DNA of 64,000 nt from Vampirovibrionaceae bacterium NZW_1234 (GCA_041697335.1 JBGUGD010000007.1:151976-215975); one strand, 5' to 3'. Positions 153 to 57,492 are shown, counted from the stretch's first letter. Program-made: numbers and translations. Notes: a model not told the origin generated them from the sequence alone.

Positions 153-1850
153 TTAATTTGTAGGTTTCGATTGGATACCAAGTCGCTTTACTTCTCGATA
201 CAAAGCACTTCGGGTTAAACCGGAGTCTTCAATCATATTATTGATGCGGTAGTCATGACGCTTGAGCAATTGTTCCAAATAGGATTTTGAAGCTAGATCG
301 ACAACGGTTGTCAGTGGCTTCGTATCCAAATGCTCGACAGCCTGCTTTAATGATTCAAGCCTTGCTTCAATGGGTGGAATAGGGATAGCCGGATCTGCCT
401 GGAGAGCATTTGTTTTACCTTTCAGTTCGGTTGGGAGGCCGATACCCAATCGTGACAACTCCCGATAAAAGGTCATCACAGCCAATCCTGATTTTGTAGC
501 TGCCTTTGGGACCTTAAAGTCGTTTTGCTTCAAGGCATGAAGCAGATAGGTTTTTGCCACAAGGTCTCTTAAGGGAGGCAAGGGGCCATCGATGAATTCG
601 CTGACCGCATGATGGAGTTGCTCTTCGGTGTCGGCAGGAGCCGCTTCATCTTGAGAACGATTGATACGGAGTAAATCCAAGCGGACCTTGTCATCCCACA
701 GCCCCATATTCTTCGCCGTTGCGGTAATCACGCCGCCGCACAGCTGGTGACGTTGTTGAAGCACCGTTTGATAGACCAGGGCATGAAGTTTATCCCAGGT
801 CAGGTCACCAAAGGCGGCAAGGACCTGCGCGAGAACACCATTACGAGTATCTGGGGTCAAATTATCTAAATTCATCGGTTTTGCTGAAGGCGGGCTTATT
901 CCCAGATCAGTGGCCTGGATTGCGGATTCTTCTCCATTAATCACTGCGCGTTCAATCACGTTCTCCAATTCGCGAATATTGCCTGGCCATGGAGCATTTT
1001 TTAAAGTATGGAGGGCCTCTTCAGAAAACCCACCCGGAAAGGGCTTCCCATATCTTTCGCTGAATTTTGCCAGAAAGTGGTTTGCCAACAGCGGAATATC
1101 TTCCTGGCGCTCTCGTAACGGGGGCACCCGAATGGGAAACACATTGAGTCGGAAGAACAAGTCATCGCGAAACTTTTTTTCGTCGACCATTTTGGGGAGA
1201 TCCTGCTTGGTGGCCGTGATGACGCGAACATCAACGGGGATTTCATCGTTACCCCCCACCCGTTTGATGGTTCGCTCCTGAAGTGTGCGCAGCAGATCCG
1301 ATTGACACTTGGTCGACATATCACCCACTTCGTCGAGAAACAATGTTCCACCTGAAGCTTGCTCAAAGATGCCAATACGTTGGCCCGCTGCACCACTGAA
1401 GGAGCCTTTCTCATGGCCAAACAGCTCCGATTCTAAAAGACCTTCCGGGAACGCTGCACAATTCAGGGCTTTCAGCTTTTTACGCGGGCTTAATCCATGA
1501 ATGGCTTTTGCAACCAGTTCTTTACCTGTCCCTGTTTCACCGAGGATGAGTATCGTGGCCGTGGTTGGAGCCACTTTCTGTATTGTTTTGCGGACCTGCT
1601 GCATGGCCGGGCTGGTGCCGATGAGAAAGCGGTCCAGATTGGCTGGAGTAATTTCCTGCGTTTTTATGGATACGCTTTGAAGCGGCTCGTTTCCGGTAAA
1701 CCGGAATGAAGCTGAATAGAAATATGTGGCGGTAGATTGAGGCTTTTGATCTCGATAATGGGTACGGCTTGCACTTGTGTAAAACGACTGAGGCACATAA
1801 CTATGCCCTAGTGTGCTATATGAACCAAGTCGCATCATTACCGAACCCAT
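153..1850 (-). CDS. Sigma-54-interacting AAA+ enhancer-binding protein (NtrC/Fis-like) lacking a receiver domain, with repeated C-terminal Fis-like HTH segments
   Basis: Walker [24 protein letters not shown] (GAFTGA variant), Walker [30 protein letters not shown]-terminal leader ending FRFTG. Confidence 0.9.
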
Positions 1851-2195
1851 CTATGAATCGCTCATTCGGGGGATTAGTTAGTGTCAGCGCTTTGAAACAG
1901 AGGCCTTACCGTCCCCAACCAATTCCATTGTATGTAAGTCATCACGGCGACTTCAAGCTTAGGTTTTAAAACTGTTACAATATTGAACTAAATTTGAAGG
2001 TCTAAATGATAATTGAGATCGTAACCGTTAAAGCCTGAAGTGGTTATTCTGTTTAAGTTCGGAACAATTTCTGTTGGGGCCACCCAGTATTGATTTACTC
2101 TAAAGATCACGCCTTCTGCTTTACGGTAGAAGATGCCCCTTATTATTTTGATAAGCGGGTTCGTATCCTATAGTAGGCTATGCCCAATTCGCTTT

Positions 2196-2813: not shown

Positions 2814-3398
2814 GTTCCGAAAACTCCCAGGCCATTAGTAAACTAGACTGTACCCCATATAAACCCCCACGTCTTCTAAAATTGTCATAAGGATGAATTT
2901 TTGTTGCAATATTCTGAAATGTTCCAATATAACAGAGGGTTTGAGCTGTTTACGACTCAAAAGCCCTCAGTCTTTCATTAAGATTGAGGGCGTCGTGGTT
3001 GTGTTTTCAGGGATGGAAAGGGTTATGGCCGAGATTCCAAAATCAATTGGCCATAAGTCTCTAACCACTGAACAAGTTGTGTAAGTGCACTTCTCATTGC
3101 CGTAGCTCCTTTTGTTTACTGTGTGAGCCTATGATAAAAGGGATACGGCAATCAGAAATCAACTGTTCACAGTATTTGGCCATGCGGTTGAGTTGTCAAG
3201 GTTGTCAGCCTAGAACAGATGCTTTTCTCTCAGTATTTAAAAATATTTTCAGGATTCATTTTGCTCAATGCTAGACCAGTTTCGTGTTTTATCGAAAGAG
3301 ATGTGAATGTTCGATTTCGAGGATCGAACGCATGAATCCATAAGCGTCGGGGTGGTTCTGTATGGAGAGTCTGTTGCTCGAATTCGTCTCGAATTCGA

Positions 3399-3475: not shown

Positions 3476-3522
3476 AGTTACGAAAATTGGTGATCAGAAA
3501 CGCCCAGGAGTCATGTCATCAA

Positions 3523-5170: not shown

Positions 5171-7516
5171 ATGGGTATAATTACGTTTCAAAATTTAAAT
5201 GTCGGCGCGTTGCTTGCTCAGAAGTCTAAGAGAGCCTCAACGCAACGAGGCACCCCAACAGAGGCCCCCATTAACAGGCGTTTGGGGGCGTTTGCAACGT
5301 CTTCCTCTATTTCCCCTCAAAACTGGAGAGCCTACAAGCTCCAGGTACCCCGGTTTGGACGCCACTTGACCCAAGGGGATCGCAATCATTTGCAGTATTT
5401 AGGTGCACATTACCTTGGCAATAATCGGGCCGTTTTTCGGGTTTTTGCTCCTGCTGCCAAACAAATGCAGCTTCAACTGACATCTTCCAGTCATCACGGG
5501 GCCTACTATGATCCAGTGGCTCCCGATGATACGCGAACACTCCCGATGAAACCTCATCCGAGAGACCCTCGGGTCTTTGAAATTGAAGTGGATCAGGTGG
5601 TGCCGGGCCACTTGTATCGGTTTGTTCTTGAGGCAGATCAATCCCGTCGGTACTTGAAAGATCCCAGATCGCAGTTTCAACCCAATGATACGTTTGGTTG
5701 GTCGCAACTGATCGATCATGGGGCTTTTCAATGGACTGATTCTCAATGGAAATCTCCATTTTCCCATCGCAATGACTCTGGTCAGTCAGGAATTCCACCC
5801 GGTATGGTGATGGCGGAACTCCATCTGGCGACCTTGGGGGGATATGATGCTGCTAAAAAAGAAATTGATCGACTTGCGGCAGAAGGTGTCTGTAATACGG
5901 TTGAGATTATGCCAATCGGAGAAGGCTATGGCAAGCTGGGGTGGGGGTTTGATGAGGTGGATAAATTTGCCCCTGAAAGTGGTTTAGGGAGTCCGGAAGC
6001 CTTCAAATCACTGGTGGATTACAGTCATAAAAAGGGTTTAAGTGTTGTTTTGCATGTCGTTCCCAATCACTTTGGACCCTATGGGAATGTCGTTCATGAG
6101 TTTGGTGAAGCCTTGGCCTCCAAGGATACGGGGTGGGGCCGTCGGCTGAATTTTGACAGCCATAATCGTGACTATATGCGTGATTACATGGTTGACATGA
6201 TGATGAACTGGGTCGTGAATTATCATGTGGATGGATTTCGCATGGATGCGTTGCAAGAGGTGGATTCCGATCAGGCGATGAAACTGATGACCTCCGAATT
6301 GCGAAGTCATCCCGAGACGTCGAAGACAATCCTGATCGCCGAAAGTATGACCAAATCCAAGCGTCTTACGGCACCTCTGGAAGCTCATTTTATTAACAAT
6401 CCCGAAGATGAAGTCAACAAGGCCCAAGCATGTTCTACAGCGCTTCTAAAACAAGGTTATGATGCGCAAGAGATTTTTGATTTTCGAAGTGTCGTGACTG
6501 CTTTGGCGATGGATTGGACCATCTACGACTGTTCCCCGAGTATTGATGACTTGGCGACAGTATTTCGTCAAGGACAGCGCTACTTTGAACCTTATGGTCA
6601 GCATTTACCAACACCACCAGGGTCAAACAATGTGATCTATGTCAGTGCCCACGACGAGAACGATACGTTCGGGGGAACAAGGCTAGTGCCTCGCTTAATT
6701 GCGACTCGGTTAGGTCTGACCCCGGATCGACAGTTGACAGATGCCCATAAGCTTAACAAGAAGCCGTTTCGAGATGTATTACCCCTTTTAAAACTGTATC
6801 TTCAGCCTAATATGACAGAACAGCAATGGAACCAACAGACGGGTGCTCTGGGGTTATCGTTTCAGGTTCCATTGAGTCGGTTTGCTCAGGCCTATCATGA
6901 GGCAAAAGCGCTTAATCGTTTAACCATGGGGACAATGTTTGTCCATCCTGGACAGAAACGTGTCTTTATGGGCGATCAGCGAGGTGAACTGGCACCTTTT
7001 AATTTTAATGGCGAATATCCACCAGATGCGAAACATGGGGATAAACCTCTGGCAGATTATGTTTCCGAGCAAAAAGGGTATCGACTGGGCCATGAGGCCT
7101 ATGCTCAATCTTTGCTGGATCAACCCGAACTGACCGATCCGATTTGGCAGCGCCAAATGCTTTTATATAGTCAAGATTTGGCGAGATTGCTTCGTACGAA
7201 CAAAGCTCTGAATAATGGGAGCTTCACAAACCTTAAAACCGCTGTGAATCAGCAGCATAAGTTGTTGTTTGTTCATCGCTGGCAGGATAACCATGAGGTG
7301 ATCGCTGTGATGAACTATGGAGAAAAGGACTTGCAGAATTTTTCTCTCAATAGCTTTGGCATTTTTCCTCAAGGAACTTGGGAAGAGGTCTTAAACAGCA
7401 ACGAGGCCAAGTATGGGGGAGACGGCCAGAACGTGAACGGTGCAAAAGGTATTACTCAACAACAATCTCAAGTGTCGGTTCCTCGACATAGTCTTTTAAT
7501 TTTTCAAAAGCGATAA
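5171..7516 (+). CDS. GH13 alpha-amylase-family glycoside hydrolase (TreZ/branching-enzyme-like, N-terminal CBM48-like domain)
   Basis: FRVFAPAA, DPRS.FQP, VVPNHFGP, catalytic DGFRMDA / LIAE / HDE, C-terminal WEEVLNS...YGG; leader ending PRFG. Confidence 0.85.
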   Translation: MGIITFQNLNVGALLAQKSKRASTQRGTPTEAPINRRLGAFATSSSISPQNWRAYKLQVPRFGRHLTQGDRNHLQYLGAHYLGNNRAVFRVFAPAAKQMQLQLTSSSHHGAYYDPVAPDDTRTLPMKPHPRDPRVFEIEVDQVVPGHLYRFVLEADQSRRYLKDPRSQFQPNDTFGWSQLIDHGAFQWTDSQWKSPFSHRNDSGQSGIPPGMVMAELHLATLGGYDAAKKEIDRLAAEGVCNTVEIMPIGEGYGKLGWGFDEVDKFAPESGLGSPEAFKSLVDYSHKKGLSVVLHVVPNHFGPYGNVVHEFGEALASKDTGWGRRLNFDSHNRDYMRDYMVDMMMNWVVNYHVDGFRMDALQEVDSDQAMKLMTSELRSHPETSKTILIAESMTKSKRLTAPLEAHFINNPEDEVNKAQACSTALLKQGYDAQEIFDFRSVVTALAMDWTIYDCSPSIDDLATVFRQGQRYFEPYGQHLPTPPGSNNVIYVSAHDENDTFGGTRLVPRLIATRLGLTPDRQLTDAHKLNKKPFRDVLPLLKLYLQPNMTEQQWNQQTGALGLSFQVPLSRFAQAYHEAKALNRLTMGTMFVHPGQKRVFMGDQRGELAPFNFNGEYPPDAKHGDKPLADYVSEQKGYRLGHEAYAQSLLDQPELTDPIWQRQMLLYSQDLARLLRTNKALNNGSFTNLKTAVNQQHKLLFVHRWQDNHEVIAVMNYGEKDLQNFSLNSFGIFPQGTWEEVLNSNEAKYGGDGQNVNGAKGITQQQSQVSVPRHSLLIFQKR

Positions 7517-8632: not shown

Positions 8633-9040
8633 GTGAGTATTGGTGAACTGGAAAAATCAGATTGGCAGGTTAACTCTGATCCGTTGGTTTACTCTGTAGA
8701 ATTGAGAGAAATGATTTGGGCGGATTTAATGGATCGGGTGGCCCAAAATTGTGATGTGGCATTGCGCCTGGTCACGTTATTTATTGAGAAATCCGGAGAA
8801 GATATGGCGCTTATTGCATTGGGTATCGAGTGTCAGGACCCGGATTTACTTAGGTTGTCGTCTCATGGGCTTATGGGAGCGACAAGTTACTTTTCCAAGG
8901 ACTTAGCCTACCCAACTCTGGCCAAATTAGAAGCGCTTGCGAGATCGGGTTCATTTGAGACTGCAGAAGACCTCTTGATGCAATTAAAACAAGAGATGAC
9001 ACTTCTGCTGACTCTTTTAAAATCTTTTGTATCATCCTAA
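8633..9040 (+). CDS. Hpt (histidine phosphotransfer) domain protein
   Basis: SHGLMGA matches H.LKG pattern; LAKLEALAR helical bundle; adjacent to response regulator. Confidence 0.75.
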   Translation: MSIGELEKSDWQVNSDPLVYSVELREMIWADLMDRVAQNCDVALRLVTLFIEKSGEDMALIALGIECQDPDLLRLSSHGLMGATSYFSKDLAYPTLAKLEALARSGSFETAEDLLMQLKQEMTLLLTLLKSFVSS

Positions 9041-25539: not shown

Positions 25540-25664
25540 AGGGTGTTCTCCGGGCTGCACGTTGCCATCATTGATCACGTGTTCGCCTTGATGATAGCAC
25601 AAACCTAAGGGTCTTCCCTCTGCAATCCCACAGGAAACCTGATGTATTTGAATTGAAAAAAGGG

Positions 25665-25748
25665 TGGTGGGCAGAACAGGACTTGAACCTGCACGCATTG
25701 CTGCACTGGTACCTAAAACCAGCGCGTCTACCATTCCGCCATCTGCCC
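25665..25748 (-). tRNA. tRNA-Leu (anticodon TAG), CCA encoded
   Basis: GGGCAGATGGCGGAATGGTAGACGCG-CTGGT-TTTAGGT-ACCAG-long variable arm-GCAGGTTCAAGTCCTGT-TCTGCCC-ACCA. Confidence 0.97.
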
Positions 25749-26372: not shown

Positions 26373-27476
26373 ATGGGGATACCTCGTGTTTTTCCGACAT
26401 CTGTGCGCTTTGGCTGGTTCGATCATGGTCATCATGCCATTGATACCGGGGCCATAAACCGACTACCGCAACAAACTCAAGATGAAAGGCAATGGCAAGG
26501 GTTTTTAAAGGAAAACCTGCAATTCATCCATGACGAAGATGATATGGAGGATCTGGTTTATGACGGCCCGATGCATTATGTGGATCTGGATAAATGGCTT
26601 CGCCCCGACGTTCCGGTCGCTCACGAGAAGAAAATGGGGGTTTCTTGGGAGGAGGCCCAAAACGCTTTTTCTGAAGAGGAGCGCCATCGGTTACACCAGC
26701 GCTGGCATGCCTCCAGTATTGAACCCGAGGACTTCTATCGCCCGCGGAACATCTTCTTATCCGTGATGCAGAAATACGATATGGTGAAACGCCAGTTGGA
26801 ATCCATTGCTCAAGGAAATAAGCGCCTTTTGACGGTGGCGCCAGGCCACACCAGCCGGGAGTTAAATATTCAACGGAACTTTTACCTGGAGCTGGTGCGC
26901 AATGTGGGTCGATTGTCACATTACATTGGCGATTTGTTTATGCCACTTCACTTAACACGTTATCACGACTGGCTCTTACACCCGGATGCGAAGGCCGAAC
27001 AGCACGCCTTTACCGAGGGCATGCACTTTTTTCTGGAAGGCAAAACCTTGACGACCCAGGATTATCAATCGCTTCTAAGCACCCCTGTCAAAGCGCCGCC
27101 AGGACCACCTCTGAATCGAGAGGCCCTGAGAACCTACCTGATTGAGAAGATGCAGCAAACCTATGGCCGGATGTATGACCTGGTCAGACTTCAACAGCAG
27201 GCGCTTGCCCAGAAGCGTGAGCACGCCAGTACCGACCTGTACGAAAAGCGTCTGGCGGAAGCGGTAAAGCCCCTGTTATTAGAGCAACTGCAATCGGCAC
27301 AAGAGGCCTTGGCAGTGACACTCCAATCGGTATGGCACGAAGCAGGACGACCAGTAGATTTTCGCTCCACTCAACCGGTTTCACTTCAGCAGAAAGCTTG
27401 GTCTGCCTTGATCAGTTTGCCCCGGAAGCTGGTGGGCCTGCTCCTTCGACGAACACCGCCTGAGGGGAAAAATTAG
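26373..27476 (+). CDS. S1/P1 nuclease / Zn-dependent phospholipase C superfamily protein with RFG leader
   Basis: WxxxGH (W15-H20), HYVDLD, SHYIGDLFMPLH, MHFFLE zinc-ligand motifs. Confidence 0.8.
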   Translation: MGIPRVFPTSVRFGWFDHGHHAIDTGAINRLPQQTQDERQWQGFLKENLQFIHDEDDMEDLVYDGPMHYVDLDKWLRPDVPVAHEKKMGVSWEEAQNAFSEEERHRLHQRWHASSIEPEDFYRPRNIFLSVMQKYDMVKRQLESIAQGNKRLLTVAPGHTSRELNIQRNFYLELVRNVGRLSHYIGDLFMPLHLTRYHDWLLHPDAKAEQHAFTEGMHFFLEGKTLTTQDYQSLLSTPVKAPPGPPLNREALRTYLIEKMQQTYGRMYDLVRLQQQALAQKREHASTDLYEKRLAEAVKPLLLEQLQSAQEALAVTLQSVWHEAGRPVDFRSTQPVSLQQKAWSALISLPRKLVGLLLRRTPPEGKN

Positions 27477-28038: not shown

Positions 28039-29307
28039 TTAGCGAATCCGCTGAATCACCAGTTTTTTGGATTCCAAGGGATTCAGGCCCAGGCGAGCGC
28101 TGGCATTGTCAAAGTTCAAGGCAATTTCGACGAAGCGTTTGTCTGGTTTCGGGCTGTAGGTGCTGCCCAAGTACAAGACAGGGTCTTTTTTGGGGACTTG
28201 GGCAAAGAATTTTTTCAAGGGCAATTGCAGCGGCGTAATGGGATCTGTGGGATCGGCGCTTCGAATTTCAAATACCGCATCCTGGGCCAAGAGCTTTTCT
28301 GCTTGTTTGGCGTTGAGAATCAGGTTCGTTTTGATGTTACCGAAGGTTCGGTCTTGAACGCCATAAAATTCCGTGCCCTTGTCGCTTGCTTTTAGAGGCA
28401 GAGAGACGATGGATTGGGCAAATGGGGTGATCTTGGGCGTAAATTTACGAGCTCGTTTCTCATCACATAAGGCTTCCGGGGCAATGCCGTTGGCAATGGC
28501 CGCAGCTGCCACCATAAACACATCTCGCCCGTGGAAGGTTTCAGGCAGTGTGTAGCTGGGGTTTTTCAGGCGAATGCGCTCCAGTTGCTGAACTTTTTCC
28601 AAATCGATGGGCAGGAGTTTATAACGTTCGCCTTTTTCTTCCAGACTCTTGATGGCCAAGCTGAAAATGCCGTTATTGGGGCCAATCACCAAGCCGTAGT
28701 TCTCCGTGATGAGAATGCTTCGATCATGGGTGATTTTTTTCTTTCGGGTCTCCCCATTACCAACACCGGGGTCACACACCAGAACAACAATGTCTTTGTT
28801 TGGACGTGATGTTGCAATCCGTTGCAGGGTGAGTGCAGCGTAGTCGGTATTCCCGAAGGGAATGTCGGACAGGGAGTGAACGGGGATGGTGTCGGCTTTT
28901 TTCGGTGTTGAGAACACCCCTAAAATGGCGTTTAGAACTGTCTTTAAAATCGCTTTGATTTGGCCGATTAGTGATGTGTCCGGTGCTTCTTTGGGGGCGC
29001 GATTCCAGCGCTTAAAGGGTTGCAGTTCCTGGCCCCGGGTGTCGGTGAATTTTAAGACGTCCCGGTAACGACTGATGGCTTCGGCATTGGAGCTGGCATC
29101 GTTAAAATCGGTAATGAGGTGAACATTTTCAATGGGGGCTTTAACCCAGGATTTTCCAAATCGCAGGTTTGGCAAGGAATGTAATGACCCTGCGCCTTTT
29201 AGGAGGCTGTGACGAGCGGGCACCCGTTGGGAAATCTGCGCTGGGGATTTTTTTAGGGGAAGGGTGTGTTGTGTGACAGTGTGGTGAATGGGGTGAATGT
29301 GGGACAT
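28039..29307 (-). CDS. DUF62 SAM hydroxide adenosyltransferase (SAM hydrolase; halogenase fold) with RFG leader
   Basis: ITDF, VCDPGVG, DR, GPNNG, TFHGRDVF, DRTFGNI; His in TFHGRD fits the hydrolase type. Confidence 0.85.
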   Translation of the reverse strand: MSHIHPIHHTVTQHTLPLKKSPAQISQRVPARHSLLKGAGSLHSLPNLRFGKSWVKAPIENVHLITDFNDASSNAEAISRYRDVLKFTDTRGQELQPFKRWNRAPKEAPDTSLIGQIKAILKTVLNAILGVFSTPKKADTIPVHSLSDIPFGNTDYAALTLQRIATSRPNKDIVVLVCDPGVGNGETRKKKITHDRSILITENYGLVIGPNNGIFSLAIKSLEEKGERYKLLPIDLEKVQQLERIRLKNPSYTLPETFHGRDVFMVAAAAIANGIAPEALCDEKRARKFTPKITPFAQSIVSLPLKASDKGTEFYGVQDRTFGNIKTNLILNAKQAEKLLAQDAVFEIRSADPTDPITPLQLPLKKFFAQVPKKDPVLYLGSTYSPKPDKRFVEIALNFDNASARLGLNPLESKKLVIQRIR

Positions 29308-33810: not shown

Positions 33811-35335
33811 CATTAACCATGCAGTTCAAGAGTCCATCGCCGTCTTCCAGCTCCAGCATGCCGGGGACGGGGATCAGAATCGCCTGTGGGCCATACAGTT
33901 TACGATAGGTCTCTAACGCCTCTTTGTCCTGGGGGCTGTTGCCACCTTGCACTCCGATATACAGAATGGGTTGGCCTGTGTCTGTCTGGTCGGTCACAAT
34001 ATTGACATAGTTGAGCAGGCTGCTTTTCCCATCCGGTGTGAGCCATAGAGTTGATGAGGGGACGGTTTCAATCTCGAATCCGCCATCAAGCAATTGTTTG
34101 CGAGCCCCATTGTAGTACACAAGGCTTTTTTCATAGCGCTCCCGGGCGAGGTCGGTTTTTGCTGAGGTGAGGTTCAAGGGCGGAACCGGACGACTCAGCA
34201 CCATCACAGGTTTTCCGGAAGGTCCCGCACAACCGGGCGTGAACCCCACCAAATCTGCATGATAATCCAGGCCATGCATCGGGAGTTCCGACTCTTTCAA
34301 AGTTTCGATATGAGGGTGTAGACGGCGTCGTTCTTCTGGCGGCATGGTTTTCAATACATCCCCAAAGGTCAGCTTTTGGGTGTTGCCACCAATAAATACC
34401 AGGGAGCGAGGGGAATAGCCGAGCGTCGAAAAAGTGTTGATAAATTCACTCACGGTTTGAACGATACGCTGTGGTAATGGGGTCGGTGCCTGATTCATCC
34501 AGATAGCCTGGTGTTCCAGAGAACGGTAACCAATCAGGAGGCCCGGCCCGTAAGGCGTGTGTATGGGGCGGATGTCCCCGCCTTCAAAATAGAGGGTTGA
34601 ATGTTGCTTTTCATCGAACCCAATACGGGCTTTTACCAGATCGGACGCCACGTGTGACGAATGGCGGTATCCACCTTTGGGCTCCAGCGCCATGCGTTGA
34701 TTTCCAGAAGGTGTTTTCAGATTTAGGGCCATCAGATTATCCTGTTGATACCACGTGACGTTGCCTTCAGAGGGGAGCAACCGGACGGTTTTTCTCGGGA
34801 TTTTCAAGGTCTTGAACAAGGTGGTTTCCAGCTCCATTAGACGTTCAGGCGTCGTGTGCTTACCATAGGTCAATAAAATGGTGGCATTCGGGTTTTGGGT
34901 ATGAAGGGCTTTCAGAAATTCGATTTGAAGAGGATGAAGCCCATCTTGAGACTTCGCCCTGTCATCAATTCCCATCAGGACCGTCTTAATAGGGCCACGC
35001 TGCTGGTTTACCAGGGGCATGGTCGCTGTTGGTTTTAGCCAGCGATATCCATTGCCTGCCTGAATCGGGGGGATTATGGCTTCTGGTGACGACATTGAAT
35101 GCCTTGGATTGGAAGGCCGGAGTGCCCAGGCTCCGGAAGCAAGCCCCGAGCTTAGAGCGAGAAACAGGGCGGTCTGTTTTAGTTTGGATCCGCAAAATGA
35201 AATGCTTGGCAATGTTGATGGGGATAAAGAACCTGTCTTCGTCGTTATAGACCGGGTATGAGGCTGTCCATTTGAAGCACCCCGATAAGGCCTCATCGGC
35301 GAATAAGAGCCAGTCCGAATTGCGTTAAGCTTCAT
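33770..35335 (-). CDS. Putative guanidino-modifying (pentein; peptidylarginine/agmatine deiminase-like) enzyme with FxG leader
   Basis: WYQQD, FEGGD, YHADL, NYVN, GLLNC in the order of W..D / EGG / H.D / N / G..HC motifs. Confidence 0.6.
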   Translation of the reverse strand: MKLNAIRTGSYSPMRPYRGASNGQPHTRSITTKTGSLSPSTLPSISFCGSKLKQTALFLALSSGLASGAWALRPSNPRHSMSSPEAIIPPIQAGNGYRWLKPTATMPLVNQQRGPIKTVLMGIDDRAKSQDGLHPLQIEFLKALHTQNPNATILLTYGKHTTPERLMELETTLFKTLKIPRKTVRLLPSEGNVTWYQQDNLMALNLKTPSGNQRMALEPKGGYRHSSHVASDLVKARIGFDEKQHSTLYFEGGDIRPIHTPYGPGLLIGYRSLEHQAIWMNQAPTPLPQRIVQTVSEFINTFSTLGYSPRSLVFIGGNTQKLTFGDVLKTMPPEERRRLHPHIETLKESELPMHGLDYHADLVGFTPGCAGPSGKPVMVLSRPVPPLNLTSAKTDLARERYEKSLVYYNGARKQLLDGGFEIETVPSSTLWLTPDGKSSLLNYVNIVTDQTDTGQPILYIGVQGGNSPQDKEALETYRKLYGPQAILIPVPGMLELEDGDGLLNCMVNVIERLPEKERPES

Positions 35336-49153: not shown

Positions 49154-50341
49154 ATGGTGTTTCCAGTCTCGTTACCCCAAGTAAAACCGGCTGTGCGCTT
49201 TGGTACAAGCGAACAATTTGCACAAAAACTCGGTGTGAAGAAAGAAGATGTCGAGGCCAACTTGCCTGAATTATTGTCCGGTTTGGATTTGGCGCCTGTC
49301 TTGTCCAAATTGTCCGGGAAAGACCGTGTGGATTTTGCCAATGCCGTCAATGCTCTGGCCGCCAGTGCTAAAAAGGCCTTCCCGAAAGGCGATGTGAAAT
49401 TCGAAGATGGGCATTATGTCATTACCTCCTATGACAACAACGAAGGCAAAGCCAGCATTACGAAAGTCAATGCCGCCGTTCGTCCCAATGTCAAAGTCCT
49501 GGGTCGTGATGTGAAGACCGTCAAGGAGTTTCTGGCCGATGCTTTGGGGCCGCAGCCTCGCCTCATTATCAGCCCGGTGGGTTGGACCATTCCTGATCCC
49601 AACGTGCTGATCCAGAACAACAAGGTCTTCGCCGACAAAGCGGCCAACCTGCGTGAAGCCCTGGTGGGCAAGTACGGTGCGGATCACCCGGAACTGGATA
49701 AGAAATACCAGAAGGGCATTAAGACCATGGCCGATAATGCCTACCAGACGGCATTCAACAACTTCTGGAGCGGCGTGGACAATTACCTGTTCAACGACCT
49801 GGGCCTGAAAGCCAAGGATGTGGCCTTTGTGACCAGTGCTTCCTATGCCGGGATTGATAAAGCGGCGATGGATTTTGCGAAAAACCGCAACATCGATGTC
49901 GTGAACATTACCCCCTATTGTTACGCCGAGTGGATGGACACCAATCTGAAGCACCCGCTTCTGGTGACGGAATCCGTGGACGATTACGCCAAGGCCTGTG
50001 CCGAAGCCGCGAACCTGTTATTGGTCACCGGTGGACGTGGCCATGCCTATCAGCAGGATTTCAAACGCTTTATGGTGGATGAGAACAAAGCGGTTCTGGC
50101 CGTTGATGTGATGAAAGAAGGCCTCAACCTCAAGGTTCCCGCCCTGAATAAAGGCGTGGTGGACAATGCGGCGGCCTTGTTGATTGAAAAAGGCTTTAAC
50201 GCCGAGAATGCCGATTTTGCCAAGAACGTTCGCAATGCGGCCAACCTGACCCCAATGCAGCGGGTTGTGGCGGGTGCGTTGGAAACCTTGCACCGGCAAT
50301 TTACCTTCACCAATGAAAAAGCCATTGCCGAGAAACTTTAG
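49154..50341 (+). CDS. RFG-leader protein, putative SLOG/LOG-like Rossmannoid domain; paralogue A
   Basis: VRFG at 14-17; IISPVGWT, GIDKAA, LLVTGGR; strongly biased codon usage; AAGGA RBS. Confidence 0.7.
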   Translation: MVFPVSLPQVKPAVRFGTSEQFAQKLGVKKEDVEANLPELLSGLDLAPVLSKLSGKDRVDFANAVNALAASAKKAFPKGDVKFEDGHYVITSYDNNEGKASITKVNAAVRPNVKVLGRDVKTVKEFLADALGPQPRLIISPVGWTIPDPNVLIQNNKVFADKAANLREALVGKYGADHPELDKKYQKGIKTMADNAYQTAFNNFWSGVDNYLFNDLGLKAKDVAFVTSASYAGIDKAAMDFAKNRNIDVVNITPYCYAEWMDTNLKHPLLVTESVDDYAKACAEAANLLLVTGGRGHAYQQDFKRFMVDENKAVLAVDVMKEGLNLKVPALNKGVVDNAAALLIEKGFNAENADFAKNVRNAANLTPMQRVVAGALETLHRQFTFTNEKAIAEKL

Positions 50342-50353: not shown

Positions 50354-51586
50354 ATGATGACTCGGGACAGCCGCTTGACTGCATTGACGCCTAACCTGAC
50401 AGCCCCCGCTGTCGTGGGAGGTCGTCGGGCGTTGGGGCTGTCCCAGTCTCATTCCCCTTCAGTGCGTTTTGGGTCAGCCGAAAATCCGTTGTCCCAGGAG
50501 GATATCTTTGCCCGGATGGGGGCAGCCCATGAAGCGTTAAAAGACGCCGAAACCCGGCCCGATATGTTTCACGATGCCGTTAAGGCCCTGACCAATGGCG
50601 GTGAGGATTTTATCGATAAGATGATGAAAGCCTTGCAAGCGGCCAAGGCCCAAATCCAGCAGACCCGAAGCTGTGAGCTTCTGCGCTCCGAGCACGGGGC
50701 TGAGGTGGGGCAGAAGATTCGCTCCGGATCCTTTGAAAAAGTCTTTGTCAATCGACGGAACTTTTATCCGTCGGATCAAGTCGATTTTAAATCCTTTTTG
50801 CGGGATGAGAAGGTGTTTGGCAAAAAGCAGCGGGCTATTATTGCCCTGACCGGCTGGACCAAGCCTCCGGCTCATTACCTGCAGCAGAACGAAGTGTTTA
50901 AGGAAGCCATGTCCCTGATTCCTCGGGAGAAGTGGCCCCTCTATGCCGAAAAGATTTATGTGCGGGCCATTAAGGAATATCTGGGTGCGGTGCTCGATCG
51001 CTTGAAAAAAGCCGGCTATAACGAAGATGATGTCGCCTTTCTATATGGCGTTACCCCCCAGGGTGTGGATCGGGCCATTGAAGAATTCTGCGAAGAGAAA
51101 AACGTCCCCTATGCCGGGGTGACTTGCTATGACTGGGTCCCCTATGTTGACGATGTTGCCGGGAAGAGGCCGATTTATCTGGCGAAAGATCCGAAAGAGT
51201 TCGGGCAGATTATGTCCGATGCCTCTGACAAGCTCGTTGTGGTGGGTGGACGGGCCTTTGCCTCAACCATCACCAAGAGCGGCGAAACCGTGGGTAAAAA
51301 CAAATCCATGGTACCTATCGACCTGATGCAGATGCGCTATGGGATTCGCATTCCGGCGGTGGTGATTAGCGATGTGGATCGCAGCAGTTCGGAAGTGGAA
51401 AATGCTGCGGCTGTTCTGAACGGTAATAAAGAAACCAATCCTGCCAACTGGCAGGAAGTACAGGAAGGCATGACGTCCTACGAGTTTGACGATCCCTTCG
51501 AGGTCAAAGCCCTGGTCATCATCCTGAAGAAGGCCCTTCAAAACATCGTGGATGCCCGCAAGGTCTCTGAAGAACTCGGGGTATAA
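50354..51586 (+). CDS. RFG-leader protein, putative SLOG/LOG-like domain; paralogue B
   Basis: VRFG at 37-40; IIALTGWT, GVDRAI, LVVVGGR, VENAAAVL align with the upstream gene. Confidence 0.7.
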   Translation: MMTRDSRLTALTPNLTAPAVVGGRRALGLSQSHSPSVRFGSAENPLSQEDIFARMGAAHEALKDAETRPDMFHDAVKALTNGGEDFIDKMMKALQAAKAQIQQTRSCELLRSEHGAEVGQKIRSGSFEKVFVNRRNFYPSDQVDFKSFLRDEKVFGKKQRAIIALTGWTKPPAHYLQQNEVFKEAMSLIPREKWPLYAEKIYVRAIKEYLGAVLDRLKKAGYNEDDVAFLYGVTPQGVDRAIEEFCEEKNVPYAGVTCYDWVPYVDDVAGKRPIYLAKDPKEFGQIMSDASDKLVVVGGRAFASTITKSGETVGKNKSMVPIDLMQMRYGIRIPAVVISDVDRSSSEVENAAAVLNGNKETNPANWQEVQEGMTSYEFDDPFEVKALVIILKKALQNIVDARKVSEELGV

Positions 51587-53205: not shown

Positions 53206-53676
53206 ATGTCTCGCATTGGTGCAATGTCAGTACGGTTTGGCGCGGTTACGGATAAACAAGCCGACCAAATGCGACTTTTGGCACGACGAACCGAAGAGTT
53301 ACAGACCGAACTTGAGGCCAATAAAAGCGATTTAGGTAATCCGAAGATCATCGCTAAAACGCTTCCTGACTTGATTACCGGGTATACGAATCTGACGAAA
53401 AGTTTCAATCAGGATCCGGACATTGTGGATAAAAACGGCCTTCCCTATCAAGCTCGAGAAGCCATCACCACCATTGGCAAGCGACTGGTAAAATTTGTGG
53501 CCAACATCTTTGAGTCCAGTGTGGCGAAACAGGTGGTGTCGGACATTCAGGCTAAAAACGGAGGGTTCGACCGCGATCTCGAAAACGATCTGCAAGCCAC
53601 CCTTGAGGAAAAGCAAAAGGCCAATGTGAATGATGCCATTGCCAAGGTGCTGGGTTTAAAAGCCTTCGGCGATTAG
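53206..53676 (+). CDS. Hypothetical helical protein with RFG leader
   Basis: AAGGAG RBS, VRFG at 9-12, downstream hairpin. Confidence 0.8.
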   Translation: MSRIGAMSVRFGAVTDKQADQMRLLARRTEELQTELEANKSDLGNPKIIAKTLPDLITGYTNLTKSFNQDPDIVDKNGLPYQAREAITTIGKRLVKFVANIFESSVAKQVVSDIQAKNGGFDRDLENDLQATLEEKQKANVNDAIAKVLGLKAFGD

Positions 53677-53805: not shown

Positions 53806-54600
53806 TCAGGATCGGGTGGTTTTGGGCTTCATTCCCAGACACCATAGAATGCCTGAGCGAAGCTGATTAAAGAGCCACGTGACAGGTTTAAACAGGCAAG
53901 CAAACCAGTCTTTAATGGCTTGCATGAGGGGTTGCTTCGATTTTTTTGTACTGCGGGCCGCTTTTGTGGAAGATGCCGATTTTGACCGGGTTCTTAAAGG
54001 GCTCGGGCTGGAAATGCCCTTGGGTTTTTGGACCGTAGTGGACGTACTTGAGGATGTCGATGCTGCACTATGACCTGTAACCAATGCCCCTGGGGCAAGC
54101 TGGCTTACGTCGTTTTGGGCAGATTGGGTGGAGGCGATTTGTTTCTGGCGGACCCAAGAGACCAGTGCTTGTTTGAGATCCGGATCCAACAGGGAATGCA
54201 TGTGCCCCTTGGGAGAGAGGAAGCGGCTTCGCGCTAAAATTGCTTTCACCAGGCTTTTGGCTTCCTTGGGGTCAGGAATCTGAGCTATCCAGGCTTCGAA
54301 GAGTGCGGTGAATTTTTCCTGCACTGTGGTCAGGAGCTTGGTTGTCGGGTGATTCTTCTCTAAGAGCACCCCTTCCAGGACAGCGTCATTTCGAATGTGG
54401 CGGACCACCATGGAGTAGGCCTCTGCCAAGCGAGGGAGCTGTTGTTTCAAGTAGGGCACCTGGGTGCCTTGCTGGCTGATTTCCTGGGCCAAGGTCGCGA
54501 GATCCCGGACTTGATCCGGCAGGTCGCGTCGATTCGATTGCCCTTGGCCGAAGCGCAATGATTGTATGTTGGGGGGTGTTCCCATCAATCGAATCGTCAT
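53806..54600 (-). CDS. Hypothetical protein with RFG leader, Ser/Thr/Lys-rich linker and amphipathic C-terminus
   Basis: LRFG; start ATG 54600 or TTG 54648; C-terminal WFACLFKPVTWLFNQL. Confidence 0.75.
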   Translation of the reverse strand: MTIRLMGTPPNIQSLRFGQGQSNRRDLPDQVRDLATLAQEISQQGTQVPYLKQQLPRLAEAYSMVVRHIRNDAVLEGVLLEKNHPTTKLLTTVQEKFTALFEAWIAQIPDPKEAKSLVKAILARSRFLSPKGHMHSLLDPDLKQALVSWVRQKQIASTQSAQNDVSQLAPGALVTGHSAASTSSSTSTTVQKPKGISSPSPLRTRSKSASSTKAARSTKKSKQPLMQAIKDWFACLFKPVTWLFNQLRSGILWCLGMKPKTTRS

Positions 54601-54675
54601 GGACGAACGCGGTCCTACATTGTCCTGTTTGGTATTAACGCTCGTCAATGCATCTTGTTGCTAGTTGTCTTTTAT

Positions 54676-57492
54676 TTAGGCCTGGGTTGATTTGCCTTCG
54701 GCGATGATCTGCTTCAGGTAGGTCTCCATGCCGGGGTCCATTTGCTTTTTAACCTCGGCGGCCTTACGGTGCATTTCGTCGAGTTTGACCATGAATTTTT
54801 CGGTAAAAAAGATGTTCAAGCGGTAGGGCATCTGGAACAGGGCCCAGACTTTAAGCATAACCAGAAAGGGGAGCACCTGGCCCTGAACAATAGAAGTAAA
54901 GCCGATGCGACCGGCCACGTTCAGGAGGCTGTGGGCCGGGGTCCAGAAGATACCGGAAAGCCAGCTGTTGTATTTTTCCTGAAAGGCCATATTTTTGCCG
55001 GTTTGCTTCAACGCCATTCCTGCCTGGATGAAGTTGCGTTGAAGTTTTTCCCAGCCCCAGGGTAGATTTCGCGTTTCTTCGGCGTAGGCTTTTCGCAGGG
55101 CCCGGTAGGCTTCTACATCTGCTCGGGCCTCGTCTTTGCTTTTGGCATGCAATACGGTCAGGTCGTGGGTCAGTCCTTTTTGGGTTTTTCTCAGGCAATA
55201 TTCCAGGTCTTTTATCAATTGTCGATCGGCGGGTGTTGTGGCCTGCTGCTTAAACGTTTCCAGCGCATTATAGACGGGGCTGCCGGGTTTGCAACCTGCA
55301 ATTCCGAGAGTGAATAATTTGTCCAAGGTGTTTTTATCCCGGTCGGCTTTCAGCAGCAAGGGTTCAAAGGGTTGTTCCGCTCTTGGGTATTTCAAGGATA
55401 GATCGGCCAGAAACTGCTCCGCGTGATTTAGGGTTTGGATGAAAAACTGATCATGCTTGGGGAGCAGTTTTTTAGCGACACCGGTGTCTGTCATTTCCTT
55501 GCGATAATAATCGGACAGGGCTTTGAGTTCAAAGCGGGTCCGCTCCATGGGGACATAGGCGGCACGATCCAGGGCCTTATGCAAATAGGTCAGGTAACGC
55601 CGGAAGGATTTGGCGGCTTTGTATTCGCTCTTGTGACGGGCATAGTCTGGAGAGGACCCCAAAGTTTTGATATAGTCATTGACCTCGGTCTGCATCTTTT
55701 TGATGGCGTCGGTCTGGTCCATGGAGAATTGTAGTTTCGCCTCTCGGGTGAGGGTTTTTTCCGATCCGGCTTGATCCGCCTCCGTACCGATGAGGGGAAG
55801 GGCGAGTGAGGCGTAGAGGGTTTTTAGTGCGTTGGTTACAGGCAGGGCTGCCGGATTTTTGGAAGCCTCCATGTCTTTAAGCATGCCTTTCATTCGTGCC
55901 AGGGTGTCTCGGCTTTCGAGGGCAAGAAGTTCGTCTTTACGACCTTCCAGATACAGTTTGGCGCGCTCCTGGGTGATGTGGATGATCTGCTTTAAAATGA
56001 CATTGGCTCCGGCGCTTAACAAAGTCATGTAGCCCACCAGCAAGGCAAACTTTCCGGACAAGGGCGAGATTTCGTAATCGGTGTAGCGATTAACGTACAG
56101 CCACTCGTAGGTTACCGTCAGCGGGATGCTGATGGGCACCATGACTTTGAGGTCGCTTAACAATTGGGGGGGCTTTTTCCAGAGTTTCTCGAAAAAGCCC
56201 ATCTTCTCAATTCCCAGCAGTTTATTGAGATTGCGCTGGGTCTTCTCTACCTTCATGGCCAGATCTTTGGTTTTTTGGACCATCGGTGTCATGACGGTTT
56301 CGTCAAACTGTTGGCTTAGGGCCTCGGCCTGGTCCGGGTTAGCTTTGATTTTTTCCGCCAGTATTGCCCGTTCCTGTTCAAGTTTTTCGGCGAGTACGTG
56401 TTTCTCCTTGGCAATTTCGCGAATTTCTTTTTCAAATTGTGCTCGTTGGCGATCGGGTTTTTCTTTGTCCCACCCGACGAGAAGAATCTGGAGCTTGGTG
56501 GTCCAGAACCCAATGCCATTGAAGAGGCCATCCAGCGCTACCATTTGCTCAAATAGGGCTGGGACGCTGATGGTTTTGCTCAGGCCCGTAACAAAGGCCG
56601 TGGTTTGACCGTAAAGTGCATCAACAAAAGAGTAAAATGGCAGAAACTGAGCGTCGGAAAGCTGATTGTCCTTAGCCCATCGGGCGAGCTTGCGATAGGT
56701 TGGGCTTTCGTTGAGCCAGGCATTAAGATCTTGACCGGCTTTGGCGATAGTTCCCGGATGGGGCATTGCTGAAGCCGCTCCTAAATGGAAAAGGTAGGTG
56801 TCTACGTACGCTTGAGGGCTTTGACCGTAGGTTTCATAATAGAACGGGATGGTGTCCTTGATGTCCTGGCGCAGGGCCTGCAGGGTTTCTGCCGTGAGGG
56901 TGCCAGGTGTTTTGCTCAGGTGTTGCAGTATCGGAAAGGCACTTACCAGCGTTTTTGCCTCTTCCAGCGCCTCGGATGAACCAAAATTTTGCGGATGATG
57001 TTGAATTTGCCCCAGGAGTTGATCCACCTGGGACAGGCGAATCGTTTTTGTTTCTGTCTCGCCGAAGTGTTCAAGAGCCCGGGTGAGTCTGACGATCAAG
57101 GGGTTCTGGTCGATGGCTGCTTCCAGCGCGGAGGGTACACTGTGGCTGGCTGGTAGCATCCGTCGCCAGAACCCCACGTGGCGAGTACGGAGATCGTCAA
57201 ACACCCGTTGCCGCTGTTGCGGCGTGAGCTGCTTCATCAGGTCGAGTTTGTGAAAAAAGTCCTTTGCGCCGGCCTGGGTGGCATACAGTGCTGAATGTGC
57301 TTCGTTTTTGGGAAGACTGTCGGCACTGTTGGAGGTGAATACATCTTTTGGGCCTTCTGACGGCAGTGGATTGAGCGGATCTGAGCCAAATCGAAACGGT
57401 GTGCGTTTCGGCACCGGTATTTCAAATGGATTTGCGACAGCCGTCCGGGGCAGCCCAAACGGCCTCTCTTTCAGAGGTGACACTGCTGGCAT
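54676..57492 (-). CDS. Large hypothetical helical/coiled-coil protein with hydrophobic segments and RFG leader
   Basis: 938 aa ORF; FRFG at 33-36; coiled-coil RAQFEKEIREIAKEK; hydrophobic stretches. Confidence 0.8.
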   Translation of the reverse strand: MPAVSPLKERPFGLPRTAVANPFEIPVPKRTPFRFGSDPLNPLPSEGPKDVFTSNSADSLPKNEAHSALYATQAGAKDFFHKLDLMKQLTPQQRQRVFDDLRTRHVGFWRRMLPASHSVPSALEAAIDQNPLIVRLTRALEHFGETETKTIRLSQVDQLLGQIQHHPQNFGSSEALEEAKTLVSAFPILQHLSKTPGTLTAETLQALRQDIKDTIPFYYETYGQSPQAYVDTYLFHLGAASAMPHPGTIAKAGQDLNAWLNESPTYRKLARWAKDNQLSDAQFLPFYSFVDALYGQTTAFVTGLSKTISVPALFEQMVALDGLFNGIGFWTTKLQILLVGWDKEKPDRQRAQFEKEIREIAKEKHVLAEKLEQERAILAEKIKANPDQAEALSQQFDETVMTPMVQKTKDLAMKVEKTQRNLNKLLGIEKMGFFEKLWKKPPQLLSDLKVMVPISIPLTVTYEWLYVNRYTDYEISPLSGKFALLVGYMTLLSAGANVILKQIIHITQERAKLYLEGRKDELLALESRDTLARMKGMLKDMEASKNPAALPVTNALKTLYASLALPLIGTEADQAGSEKTLTREAKLQFSMDQTDAIKKMQTEVNDYIKTLGSSPDYARHKSEYKAAKSFRRYLTYLHKALDRAAYVPMERTRFELKALSDYYRKEMTDTGVAKKLLPKHDQFFIQTLNHAEQFLADLSLKYPRAEQPFEPLLLKADRDKNTLDKLFTLGIAGCKPGSPVYNALETFKQQATTPADRQLIKDLEYCLRKTQKGLTHDLTVLHAKSKDEARADVEAYRALRKAYAEETRNLPWGWEKLQRNFIQAGMALKQTGKNMAFQEKYNSWLSGIFWTPAHSLLNVAGRIGFTSIVQGQVLPFLVMLKVWALFQMPYRLNIFFTEKFMVKLDEMHRKAAEVKKQMDPGMETYLKQIIAEGKSTQA

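Follow-up and report, generated by a model that had tools for sequence, protein, structure and literature searches.

The stretch of DNA analysed here, hereafter the window, comprises 64,000 nucleotides of the genome of Vampirovibrionaceae bacterium NZW_1234 (GCA_041697335.1, JBGUGD010000007.1:151976-215975; G000:C13:151976-215975 in our numbering) and encodes a series of unrelated proteins whose N-termini carry a short leader ending in the tripeptide Arg-Phe-Gly (RFG). The original prediction, made from the sequence of the window, listed eight exact x-RFG sites and two variants, and all ten lie at the residues given there (Table 1). Solid Pfam domains are found in three of these ten proteins, namely a sigma-54 activator, a GH13/CBM48 protein and a protein related to DUF62/S-adenosylmethionine (SAM) hydroxide adenosyltransferases. 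As first noted, the recognisable domains begin after the motif; in the sigma-54 activator, the Sigma54_activat domain starts at residue 76. Membership of the two variants (FRFTG and ISFCG), which had been counted with the set, could not be substantiated, FRFTG being located on the sigma-54 activator; an x-F-x-G form like FRFTG does occur in relatives.

In six of the eight exact carriers of the window, an AGGA-, GGAG- or AGGAG-like sequence is positioned 7-13 nt before the ATG upstream of the motif. The DUF62 carrier has AGGA before its ATG, and both this reading frame and that of the 938-aa orphan lack a start codon in the 25 codons past the motif. The orphan at 53806-54600 can be extended to a TTG-started frame (53806-54648), in which LRFG comprises residues 31-34; here, AGGA precedes the ATG at residue 17.

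Table 1. Leaders in the window and flagellar-type export loci elsewhere in the genome. Positions with the prefix C refer to other contigs of the genome; all others count from the first letter of the window.
Feature	Coordinates	Strand	Details
GH13/CBM48 protein 5171-7516, leader	5171..5359	+	63 aa ending PRFG (aa 60-63); CBM_48 from aa 77
Zinc-PLC/S1-P1-like protein, leader	26373..26414	+	14 aa ending VRFG (aa 11-14); next codon 26415-26417 = Trp
Zinc-PLC/S1-P1-like protein, predicted mature part	26415..27476	+	conserved columns; pLDDT 87.7; Z 15.8-18.9; weak Pfam Zn_dep_PLPC match
DUF62/SAM hydroxide adenosyltransferase-like protein 28039-29307, leader	29155..29307	-	51 aa ending LRFG (aa 48-51)
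Orphan 49154-50341, leader	49154..49204	+	17 aa ending VRFG (aa 14-17); AGGA 10 nt before ATG
Orphan 50354-51586, leader	50354..50473	+	40 aa ending VRFG (aa 37-40)
Small orphan 53206-53676, leader	53206..53241	+	12 aa ending VRFG (aa 9-12); AGGAG 7 nt before ATG
Orphan 53806-54600, leader	54547..54600	-	18 aa from ATG, ending LRFG (aa 15-18)
938-aa orphan 54676-57492, leader	57385..57492	-	36 aa ending FRFG (aa 33-36)
Sigma-54 activator 153-1850, possible variant leader	1692..1850	-	53 aa, acid-free, ending FRFTG (aa 49-53); membership doubtful
Protein 33770-35335, possible variant leader	35189..35335	-	49 aa ending ISFCG (aa 45-49); signal-peptide-like hydrophobic stretch after
Set A (canonical), FliP-FliR-FlhB-FlhA	C2:99-104 kb (C2:99137-104324)		
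Set A, FlgB-FlgC-FliE-FliF-FliG-FliH-FliI	C2:180-186 kb (C2:179936-186195)		flagellins on C26
Set B, two FlgF/G-like, FlgB, FlgC, FliF, FliH, FlhA, FliI	C32:8.7-21 kb (C32:8784-20950)		
Set B, FliP/Q/R and 472-aa SctQ-like protein	C8:66-70 kb (C8:66046-69954)		SctQ-like protein with two FliMN_C (SPOA) domains
Set B, FlhB	C29:178.7-179.8 kb (C29:178730-179812)		adjoins putative sigma-factor-like gene at about C29:179872-180600

Frequency, conservation and cargo of the leader

The genome (3.70 Mb in 41 contigs, 94.75% complete) was represented by 3034 open reading frames (ORFs), taken as the longest frames of at least 100 aa after greedy thinning of overlaps, without a gene finder, and covering 85% of its length. 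A genome-wide comparison of N-termini with internal positions, proposed as a check of the original prediction, returned 165 RFG tripeptides in residues 1-49, where 32.2 are expected from internal positions. The density amounts to 0.86-1.38 per 1000 positions in N-termini and to 0.20 per 1000 beyond residue 300 (60 in 299,230). Among tripeptides with at least 15 N-terminal occurrences, RFG displays by far the largest excess and ranks third by ratio, marginally below the rare SPC and CLM (15-16 occurrences); the next-largest excesses belong to PRF, LRF and VRF. Within the first 210 nt of the ORFs, RFG is read 187 times in frame, compared to 58 and 95 times in the other sense frames and 46-76 times in the antisense frames. 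The tripeptide is encoded by 36 codon combinations, with every Arg, Phe and Gly codon in use, and this synonymous variation points to a motif at the protein level rather than a DNA word.

The sequence logo reads S(-2), [L/P/V/I](-1), R, F, G, [S/A](+1). Upstream of RFG, Pro, Ser, Thr and Arg are enriched about twofold and acidic residues are scarce (Asp 2.7% and Glu 1.9% in the leaders, versus 5.2% and 5.9% in the background), whereas the composition is normal after the motif. Single substitutions of the tripeptide are enriched as well, RFA, RFS and RFQ about 2.2-fold and SFG 1.7-fold. At the extreme N-terminus, where a second motif was sought, hydrophobic residues occupy positions 3-5 in only 40% of cases versus about 30%, a comparison subject to ambiguity in the starts. 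Allowing at most one acidic residue in the 20 positions before RFG defines 146 strict carriers; in 48 of them, the 20 codons that follow RFG include no ATG, GTG or TTG. An acid-poor leader with the broader motif RF[GSAQN] is present in 283 of 3034 ORFs, versus 165 of 10,113 internal control windows. About 30 RFG matches are expected at random, and MqnA and HxlR, in which RFG lies inside the domain, are examples of such chance matches. Roughly 110-150 proteins carry the leader with RFG and about 230 when RF[GSAQN] is counted, corresponding to about 5% and up to about 8% of the ORFs; the ten carriers of the original prediction thus underestimated the scale. By BLAST, the mature parts of 183 carriers group into 161 clusters of at most four members each, and their leaders range from 7 to 60 aa with three to five conserved positions. 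The genome-wide excess and the diversity of these clusters bear out the view of a lineage-specific N-terminal signal on many unrelated proteins.

Conservation between orthologues is restricted to the motif. At eight DUF62 loci in seven related genomes, x-F-G or x-F-S is always kept a few residues ahead of the conserved start of the domain (PRFG, VRFS, ARFG/IHFG, VKFG, YFG/KFG, SFG/KFG, VFG and LFG, with different residues at -3), x-F-G being located about 15 aa before the conserved TDFND. The same holds for a Lon-like carrier, whose orthologues have LRFG, VRFS or a tandem EFG-KFG-KFG just before the domain. The rest of the leader shows no conservation, even from orthologue to orthologue. One of the Lon-like orthologues, L185 (G020:C2:711983-717142), has three tandem motifs, V-E-F-G, V-K-F-G and L-K-F-G, before its mature part.

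Of the 138 strict carriers outside the window, 60 lie in 20 regions of the genome that were fetched for their clustering of carriers. Pfam domains (E <=1e-4) were detected in 20 of these 60, two of them the chance matches MqnA and HxlR, leaving 40 without. The domains include proteases and chaperones (FtsH-like AAA plus M41, Lon, ClpB-like AAA_2, M16, M20), metabolic enzymes (lactate/malate dehydrogenase (LDH/MDH), isocitrate dehydrogenase (IDH), phosphoribosyl pyrophosphate (PRPP) synthetase (Prs), enoyl-CoA hydratase, NTP-transferase, isochorismatase) and others (alpha/beta-hydrolase, EEP nuclease/phosphatase, acyltransferase, cytidylyltransferase, EF-hand, HEAT). Other paralogues exist in the genome for 14 of 17 tested carriers. 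For MDH, Prs, IDH, ClpB, FtsH, M16 and NTP-transferase, clearly leaderless copies start directly with the domain, which agrees with the earlier suggestion that the leader is an add-on. Several FtsH- and ClpB-like paralogues bear leaders as well, and DUF62, isochorismatase and EEP are present in single copy. The sole copy of an essential cytoplasmic function was not seen among the 17 tested carriers. Judged by their sequences, the carriers appear to form an extra set, composed of diverged second copies of housekeeping enzymes together with orphans and hydrolases.

The mature parts of the carriers are poor in Cys (0.50%, versus 0.91% in a comparison set of other ORFs that includes some spurious ones; Mann-Whitney p = 3e-9). 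A transmembrane (TM)-like segment is absent from 143 of 172 carriers and precedes the motif in three; of the non-carrier ORFs, 561 of 2862 have such a segment in the first 40 aa. In 13 carriers a TM-like segment follows within 40 residues of the motif, some of these being chance matches in ordinary signal peptides. A protein with four EF-hands (G000:C23:21666-23480; L025:1-1815) starts M-F-I-Y-I-I-Y-K-L-R-F-G and may belong to the leader set despite its hydrophobic first residues; a GCAATTT element is located upstream of its gene.

This heptamer recurs upstream of carriers. GCAATTT occurs within 150 nt upstream of 22 of 146 carriers and 83 of 2827 other ORFs (p = 2.6e-9). Alignment of the sites places it as the first half of a promoter-like element, GGCAATTT-N14-17-TTTATT, whose spacer often contains TGAGGG. 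The consensus GCAATTT-N14-17-TTnAnT is found 82 times in the genome and precedes 52 ORFs. Strict RFG carriers account for 10 of these 52, versus 136 of 2982 others (p = 1.4e-4), and acid-poor RF[GSAQN] leaders for 23 of 52, versus 260 of 2982 (Fisher p = 2.5e-11), which suggests that the carrier set is partly co-regulated. Looser forms of the element exist in the window at 2857-2884 (-) and 8724-8751 (-); the former is positioned just upstream of ORF 2196-2813, encoding a 205-aa Pro/Gln-rich protein with no Asp or Glu in its first 78 residues.

The junction in a zinc phospholipase C/S1-P1-like protein

The carrier encoded at 26373-27476 allows the end of the leader to be placed relative to a mature protein. 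Its N-terminal stretch reads ...S-V-R-F-G-W-F-D-H-G-H-H, and its Pfam matches to Zn_dep_PLPC (E 0.041, 14.3 bits; cut-off 26.8) and S1-P1_nuclease (E 3.5, 7.8 bits; cut-off 29.5) are both below the curated cut-off. A word-based homologue search returned the protein itself alone and a PDB sequence search came back empty; in a full HMMER search against 1.84 billion representatives, 64 proteins were listed, one of them the query. We aligned 54 homologues, omitting P0016, P0021, P0025, P0041, P0042, P0048, P0052 and P0060 as short or N-terminally truncated, as well as P0062 (KFG↓W) and P0064 (HFG↓W; the arrow marks the junction). In this alignment, H20, H68, H183, D187, H193 and H218 are invariant, and F13, G14, W15, D60 and E222 are conserved in at least 90% of the sequences.

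The AlphaFold model of the protein is predicted with good overall confidence (mean predicted local distance difference test, pLDDT, of 87.7), with leader residues 1-12 below 50. The top 35 rows of a Foldseek search were all zinc phospholipases C (PLCs), clostridial alpha-toxins or S1/P1-type nucleases (E 0.0055-0.14). VIA-align matched 29 PDB entries at Z 15.8-18.9, with a root-mean-square deviation of 2.8-4.0 over 208-229 residues, followed by the next entry at Z 5.0. Every one of these 29 alignments starts at model residue 15 (14 in five rows), and residue 15, the Trp after RFG, is paired with residue 1 of the chain, or with residue 21, 26 or 27 in precursor-numbered entries. W15, H20, D60, H68, H183, D187, H193, H218 and E222 would correspond one-to-one to the nine known ligands of these enzymes. 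On the strength of the model, we assign the protein to a divergent branch of the zinc-dependent phospholipase C/S1-P1 nuclease superfamily. As described for S1 nuclease in PMC5201275, the mature chain begins with that Trp after removal of the signal sequence, and the N-terminal main chain coordinates zinc.

F-G directly precedes the Trp in 48 of the 54 aligned homologues. The 48 leaders comprise 7-53 residues (median 18) with 2.3% Asp plus Glu, and carry R (28), K (9), Q (7) or another residue (4) at -3, as well as P (22), V (11), I (7), L (6) or another residue (2) at -4. None of them reaches a 10-aa hydropathy of 2.2, compared to 2.26-2.94 in five distant homologues with Sec-type hydrophobic leaders. 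Three of these five Sec-type leaders end at the same Trp (...AHA↓W, ...AAA↓W and ...VIG↓W); P0056 and P0063 read ...A↓W-G-W, with the aligned junction two residues after the likely Sec cut. One aligned homologue reads PRFG↓F. Given that the zinc site requires the chain to start at Trp, the leader would be cut after Gly, at FG↓W; and given that it takes the place of the cleaved Sec signal of relatives, it would functionally be an export-type signal. The original proposal of an export or processing signal is hereby narrowed: processing acquires a predicted cut site, and export becomes likely by analogy with the position of the Sec peptide in distant homologues.

In the genomes of the Genome Taxonomy Database (GTDB), the PLC-like family is confined to the order of the window (family f1, 1/1, plus the window's genome; f2, 3/17; f3, 9/17) and absent elsewhere in the class (0/115). 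With 14 of 151 genomes of the class, its distribution is too narrow to map the leader across the class. Thirteen parsed loci read [R/Q/S]FG↓W or ↓F.

A similar replacement is indicated for a 5'-nucleotidase-like family, of which 16 members were aligned. All 12 Melainabacteria-type members have polar leaders. In the outgroup of four, short Sec-type N-termini that stop 6-8 residues ahead of the first strand are seen in three, and P0145 starts with a hydrophobic segment and then has a long insert. The copy in the window's genome contains RFS five residues before the first strand. Eight more distant homologues (P0085-P0092) likewise have polar leaders, and six of them share the N-terminus M-I-N/S-x-I/V/T-N/S-x-Y and no x-F-G; judging by its sequence, this N-terminus may be another lineage's version of the tag.

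Known signals and candidate export machines

The original statement that the leader is not a Sec, Tat, lipoprotein or prepilin signal holds for each of the four. It resembles a Sec signal, cut by signal peptidase I, in its place, in its junction with the mature PLC/S1-P1-like enzyme (and similarly in the 5'-nucleotidase family) and in its presumed removal, but differs in having no hydrophobic h-region (0/48 leaders; 3/172 carriers) and in departing from the A-x-A rule, with R, K or Q at -3 in 44 of 48 leaders and Phe at -2; the Gly at -1 is small. A Tat signal is not indicated either, as there is a single Arg, with Ser at -2 from it, no enrichment of a second Arg or of Leu-Lys, and no h-region. 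A lipobox would require an invariant Cys at +1, a position occupied here by S, A, Q, G, T or N; between -20 and +20, Cys nowhere ranks among the six commonest residues. In prepilins, a hydrophobic helix (F/M-T-L-I-E) follows the Gly; here, the residues after Gly are polar, and 143 of 172 carriers lack any hydrophobic segment. The true pseudopilins of a relative are clearly unlike RFG leaders.

The composition is closer to that of type III N-terminal signals: the leader is disordered (pLDDT below 50), Ser/Thr/Pro-rich, acid-poor and without a hydrophobic core, has a single key Phe about 10-50 residues from the start, and occurs in a genome with two flagellar-type export gates. For early flagellar subunits, Bryant et al. 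(2022; PMC8983047) describe a bipartite signal, consisting of a hydrophobic extreme N-terminus and a gate-recognition motif that docks at FlhB-C. The RFG leader has a fixed tripeptide instead of the loose pattern F-x-x-x-hydrophobic of this motif, and the position four residues after the Phe displays no hydrophobic enrichment (the commonest residues there being L, at 0.12 or 1.2-fold, S and P).

FlhA, FlhB, FliP, FliR, FliI, FliF, FlgB and FlgC are each encoded twice in the genome and can be arranged into a canonical set A and a divergent set B (Table 1). At the FliG position of set B on C32, the genome encodes a 385-aa protein without Pfam match, and the single FliG_C match in the genome, even at E 0.1, belongs to set A. 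The use of flagellar apparatus for non-flagellar proteins, or without a filament, is known from Campylobacter (Cia/FlaC), Yersinia (YplA) and Buchnera (basal bodies). Set B resembles these systems in keeping genes for the export gate, the ATPase complex, the MS-ring and the rod, with no recognisable FliG_C; unlike the RFG set, which is large, they have few substrates and no shared cleavable tag on them. FlhB of set B (FlhB_B) reads N-P-I-H, presumably at the usual N-P-T-H autocleavage site, with N267, P268 and H270 invariant in 25 orthologues. In their account of a gut Melainabacteria genome, Di Rienzi et al. (2013; PMC3787301) report core flagellar genes without filament, cap, junction and L/P rings, and for genome ACD20 a flgG-flgG-flgC-fliF-fliH-flhA-fliI cluster together with a second flhA.

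Across the order, 39 of 41 genomes have at least two FlhA matches and the other two have one; an FlhB_B orthologue is present in all 41. Orthologues of the set-B FlhA (FlhA_B) with at least 63% identity are found in f1, f2, f3, f7 and one of two f4 genomes, copies of FlhA_B type at 42-49% identity in f6, f8, f9 and f11, and none in f5 (0/33) and f10 (0/2). A gut relative encodes a protein with a VQFG leader next to FlhA_B. An excess of RFG-type leaders was absent from 385-400 kb samples of G104 (f5), G151 (f7) and G045 (f8), at low sampling power: in 260-kb samples of the window's own genome, RFG ranked first in two of eight and among the top four in three of eight. G104 is a member of the class without FlhA, and no RFG-type leaders were seen in its 400-kb sample; the G045 sample contains polar, Phe-bearing N-termini when inspected by eye. 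A predicted complex of the cytoplasmic domain of FlhB_B (residues 212-360) with the first 40 residues of the orphan 49154-50341 scored 0.01 against a mark of 0.32, a result that counts neither for nor against binding. The 94.75%-complete genome has no match to a contractile sheath, TssC or VirB4. Given two export sets and no other injection machine found, a flagellum-derived exporter is the best available candidate; export through the FliG_C-less set B in particular is a tentative assignment, which we regard as possible but on balance improbable.

Possible function of the leader and alternative explanations

We propose that RFG closes an N-terminal sorting leader of 8-60 residues, which would be cleavable, disordered, rich in Pro, Ser, Thr and Arg, nearly free of Asp and Glu and without a hydrophobic core. 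The leader would end in [P/V/I/L]-[R/K/Q]-F-G, with a peptidase cutting directly after the Gly, and would direct a large set of unrelated and partly co-regulated proteins out of the cytoplasm by a route other than the Sec, Tat, lipoprotein or prepilin pathways. The most plausible machine would be one of the two flagellar-type type III export sets, set B being the better candidate. Taken as a whole, a cleavable export or sorting leader of an undescribed type, whose route might be flagellar-type, appears to us a fairly probable explanation.

Several observations weigh against this proposal. The main unexplained point is the presence of ATP-dependent proteases and central-metabolic paralogues in the cargo: Lon-, FtsH- and ClpB-like ATPases, MDH, IDH and PRPP synthetase would be useless outside a compartment containing ATP or NAD, and the sigma-54 activator with the possible variant leader would have no use outside a cytoplasm. 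In at least about 10 carriers that look genuine, the motif is followed at a distance of 10-45 aa by a membrane segment; were such a protein to insert into the membrane of the cell itself, its leader would stay on the cytoplasmic side. The case for cleavage and export draws on one enzyme family and on positional analogy. In the gut lineage f2, the leaders of three PLC-like loci (L254-L256, from G031, G015 and G035) end in QRQG↓W, with no Phe at -2; they contain a P-A-F-V-K element about 15 residues upstream of the Trp, an arrangement in which Phe motif and cut site appear to be separable. We also rejected the 5'-nucleotidase-like carrier as a second exact junction, its nearest relatives having no RF[GS] at that position. 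Type III substrates are not known to be cleaved or to share a conserved tripeptide, so that the cleavage proposed for the RFG leader would be atypical of this route. Carriers are not clearly concentrated near the set-B loci (by eye, about five in about 95 kb, versus about one per 25 kb genome-wide), and G151, an f7 genome with an FlhA_B orthologue of 64% identity, displays by eye only a few looser leaders in 400 kb (NFAG, HFG, FTG, TFNG, SFG and NFEG). Finally, the ORF set is crude, and a codon-usage frame model places only 75 of 136 leaders in frame, compared to 2139 of 2862 ordinary N-termini and 339 of 2839 upstream regions; the low score of the leaders may be due to their odd composition.

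Among the alternatives, a role in the cytoplasm has the most in its favour, although we consider it unlikely. RFG would then end a cytoplasmic pro-sequence, or form a short docking or degradation motif, linked for example to M16 or AAA+ proteases; its removal or binding within the cell would serve to activate, localise or destroy the proteins of a co-regulated set. Such a role would accommodate the ATP-/NAD-dependent enzymes and AAA+ proteases of the cargo, the carriers with a membrane anchor after the leader and the possible variant on the sigma-54 activator, and several M16 peptidases are indeed encoded in the genome; Gram-positive zinc PLCs, moreover, are made with pro-peptides cut before Trp1. 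It is at odds with the position of the leader in the PLC/S1-P1-like family, where it replaces the Sec peptide (48/54 versus 5/54), and with the similar replacement in the 5'-nucleotidase family. The carriers almost never have a Sec signal of their own, are Cys-poor, include typical exo-enzymes and, in 14 of 17 tested cases, are accompanied by further paralogues, which likewise argues for a role outside the cytoplasm.

A quite improbable variant of export would dispense with the flagellar part and handle the leader like a double-glycine (PCAT/C39) leader, using an ATP-binding cassette (ABC) exporter or another translocon together with a peptidase cutting after Gly. Double-glycine leaders are N-terminal, non-hydrophobic and 15-30 aa long, and are cut after Gly with a hydrophobic residue four positions before the cut. 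The RFG leader is alike in position and polarity, in its predicted cut after Gly and in the hydrophobic residue or Pro at -4, and the absence of known cleavage in type III substrates also favours this route, as do the genome's seven Peptidase_C39 matches, of which one falls in a 709-aa frame that has the size of an ABC exporter and contains one internal TAA stop. However, all 48 leaders have Phe rather than Gly at -2, and the cargo comprises whole enzymes of up to about 1000 aa (1088 aa at most), far above the small peptides that are the usual double-glycine cargo. The stand-alone C39-like genes do not follow the distribution of the leader: homologues are sporadic (7 of 151 genomes of the class), and we rejected these proteins as a universal leader peptidase. 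One of them has an RFG leader plus a membrane segment and another a VRFS leader plus a lipobox; bearing such leaders themselves, they look like cargo. Stand-alone Peptidase_C39-like proteins of 232-375 aa are encoded at C5:228339-229037, C14:49516-50214, C37:142312-143406, C37:143692-144786, C17:11018-12145, C4:52203-53150 and C22:12069 onward.

The ATP-dependent proteases and central-metabolic paralogues form the basis of a bolder extension of the export proposal, to which we assign a still lower probability. A leader-tagged second proteome, with FtsH-, Lon- and ClpB-like proteins, an M16 peptidase, MDH, IDH, PRPP synthetase and glucan enzymes, would be delivered into another ATP-containing compartment, which could be the cytoplasm of a host or prey, reached via the FliG_C-less machine, or lie inside the bacterium itself as an organelle-like space. 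Taken furthest, the leader of this sister lineage of Cyanobacteria would share an evolutionary origin with plastid transit peptides. Such peptides and mitochondrial presequences resemble the leader in composition only, being hydroxylated, basic, acid-poor and variable in length with an Arg-containing cut site, and the F-G element recalls the 'FGLK' motifs of transit peptides. The cargo list is also reminiscent of organelle-imported proteins (FtsH, Lon, ClpB, M16, MDH, IDH, Prs, glucan enzymes). Here, however, the organism is a bacterium, and no TOC/TIC- or TOM/TIM-type machine is implied. The original description of the carriers as 'effectors' of a predatory or host-associated organism goes beyond what these results show.

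Common descent, or a shuffled N-terminal module in place of a signal, is very improbable: a few small paralogue groups of two to four members exist among the carriers, yet 183 carriers fall into 161 clusters, and leaders of 7-60 aa with three to five conserved positions differ outside the motif even between orthologues. Least probable, to the point of being nearly negligible, is an artefact of chance, of over-extended ORFs with true starts downstream or of a promoter or ribosome-binding DNA motif that happens to read RFG; the use of the longest possible starts, the roughly 30 chance matches and the 55% of leaders placed in frame by the codon model speak for it, but it is contradicted by the in-frame excess with varying codons, by the retention of the motif in orthologous proteins despite changes in codons and in the -3 residue, by the 48 of 146 carriers with no possible start within 20 codons past the motif and by the exact junction with a structurally obligatory Trp.

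If RFG does mark a cleavable export leader, several consequences would follow. Protein-sorting signals are few and considered well catalogued, and a new cleavable signal on 5-8% of the proteins of a Melainabacteria order would alter the way in which such genomes are interpreted. The carriers, among them nucleases/phospholipases, nucleotidases, proteases and about 100 orphans, would be classed as cytoplasmic by standard predictors. The signal would define a testable secretome or 'effectome' for an uncultured group of animal guts and groundwater, and FG↓X would be a precise bond to look for in metaproteomes. A flagellum-derived apparatus may, in addition, have become a secretion machine independently of the injectisome. 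The leader would also offer a bacterial counterpart with which organelle transit peptides can be compared in composition. Literature searches on secretion in Melainabacteria, Gastranaerophilales and Vampirovibrionia turned up no account of such a leader or of two export-gate sets, although the flagellar gene table in the supplement to PMC3787301 may bear on the latter. As read from the sequences, a likely cleavage site, its correspondence to that of a Sec signal peptide and the pattern of paralogues appear to be new here.

The window also contains two transfer RNA (tRNA) genes detected with Rfam, at 59552-59625 (+) and 25668-25748 (-), with scores of 65.8 and 57.9 bits. They are located inside the 5' ends of ORFs 59568-60806 and 24313-25758, respectively, and the assigned starts of these two ORFs are therefore probably wrong.

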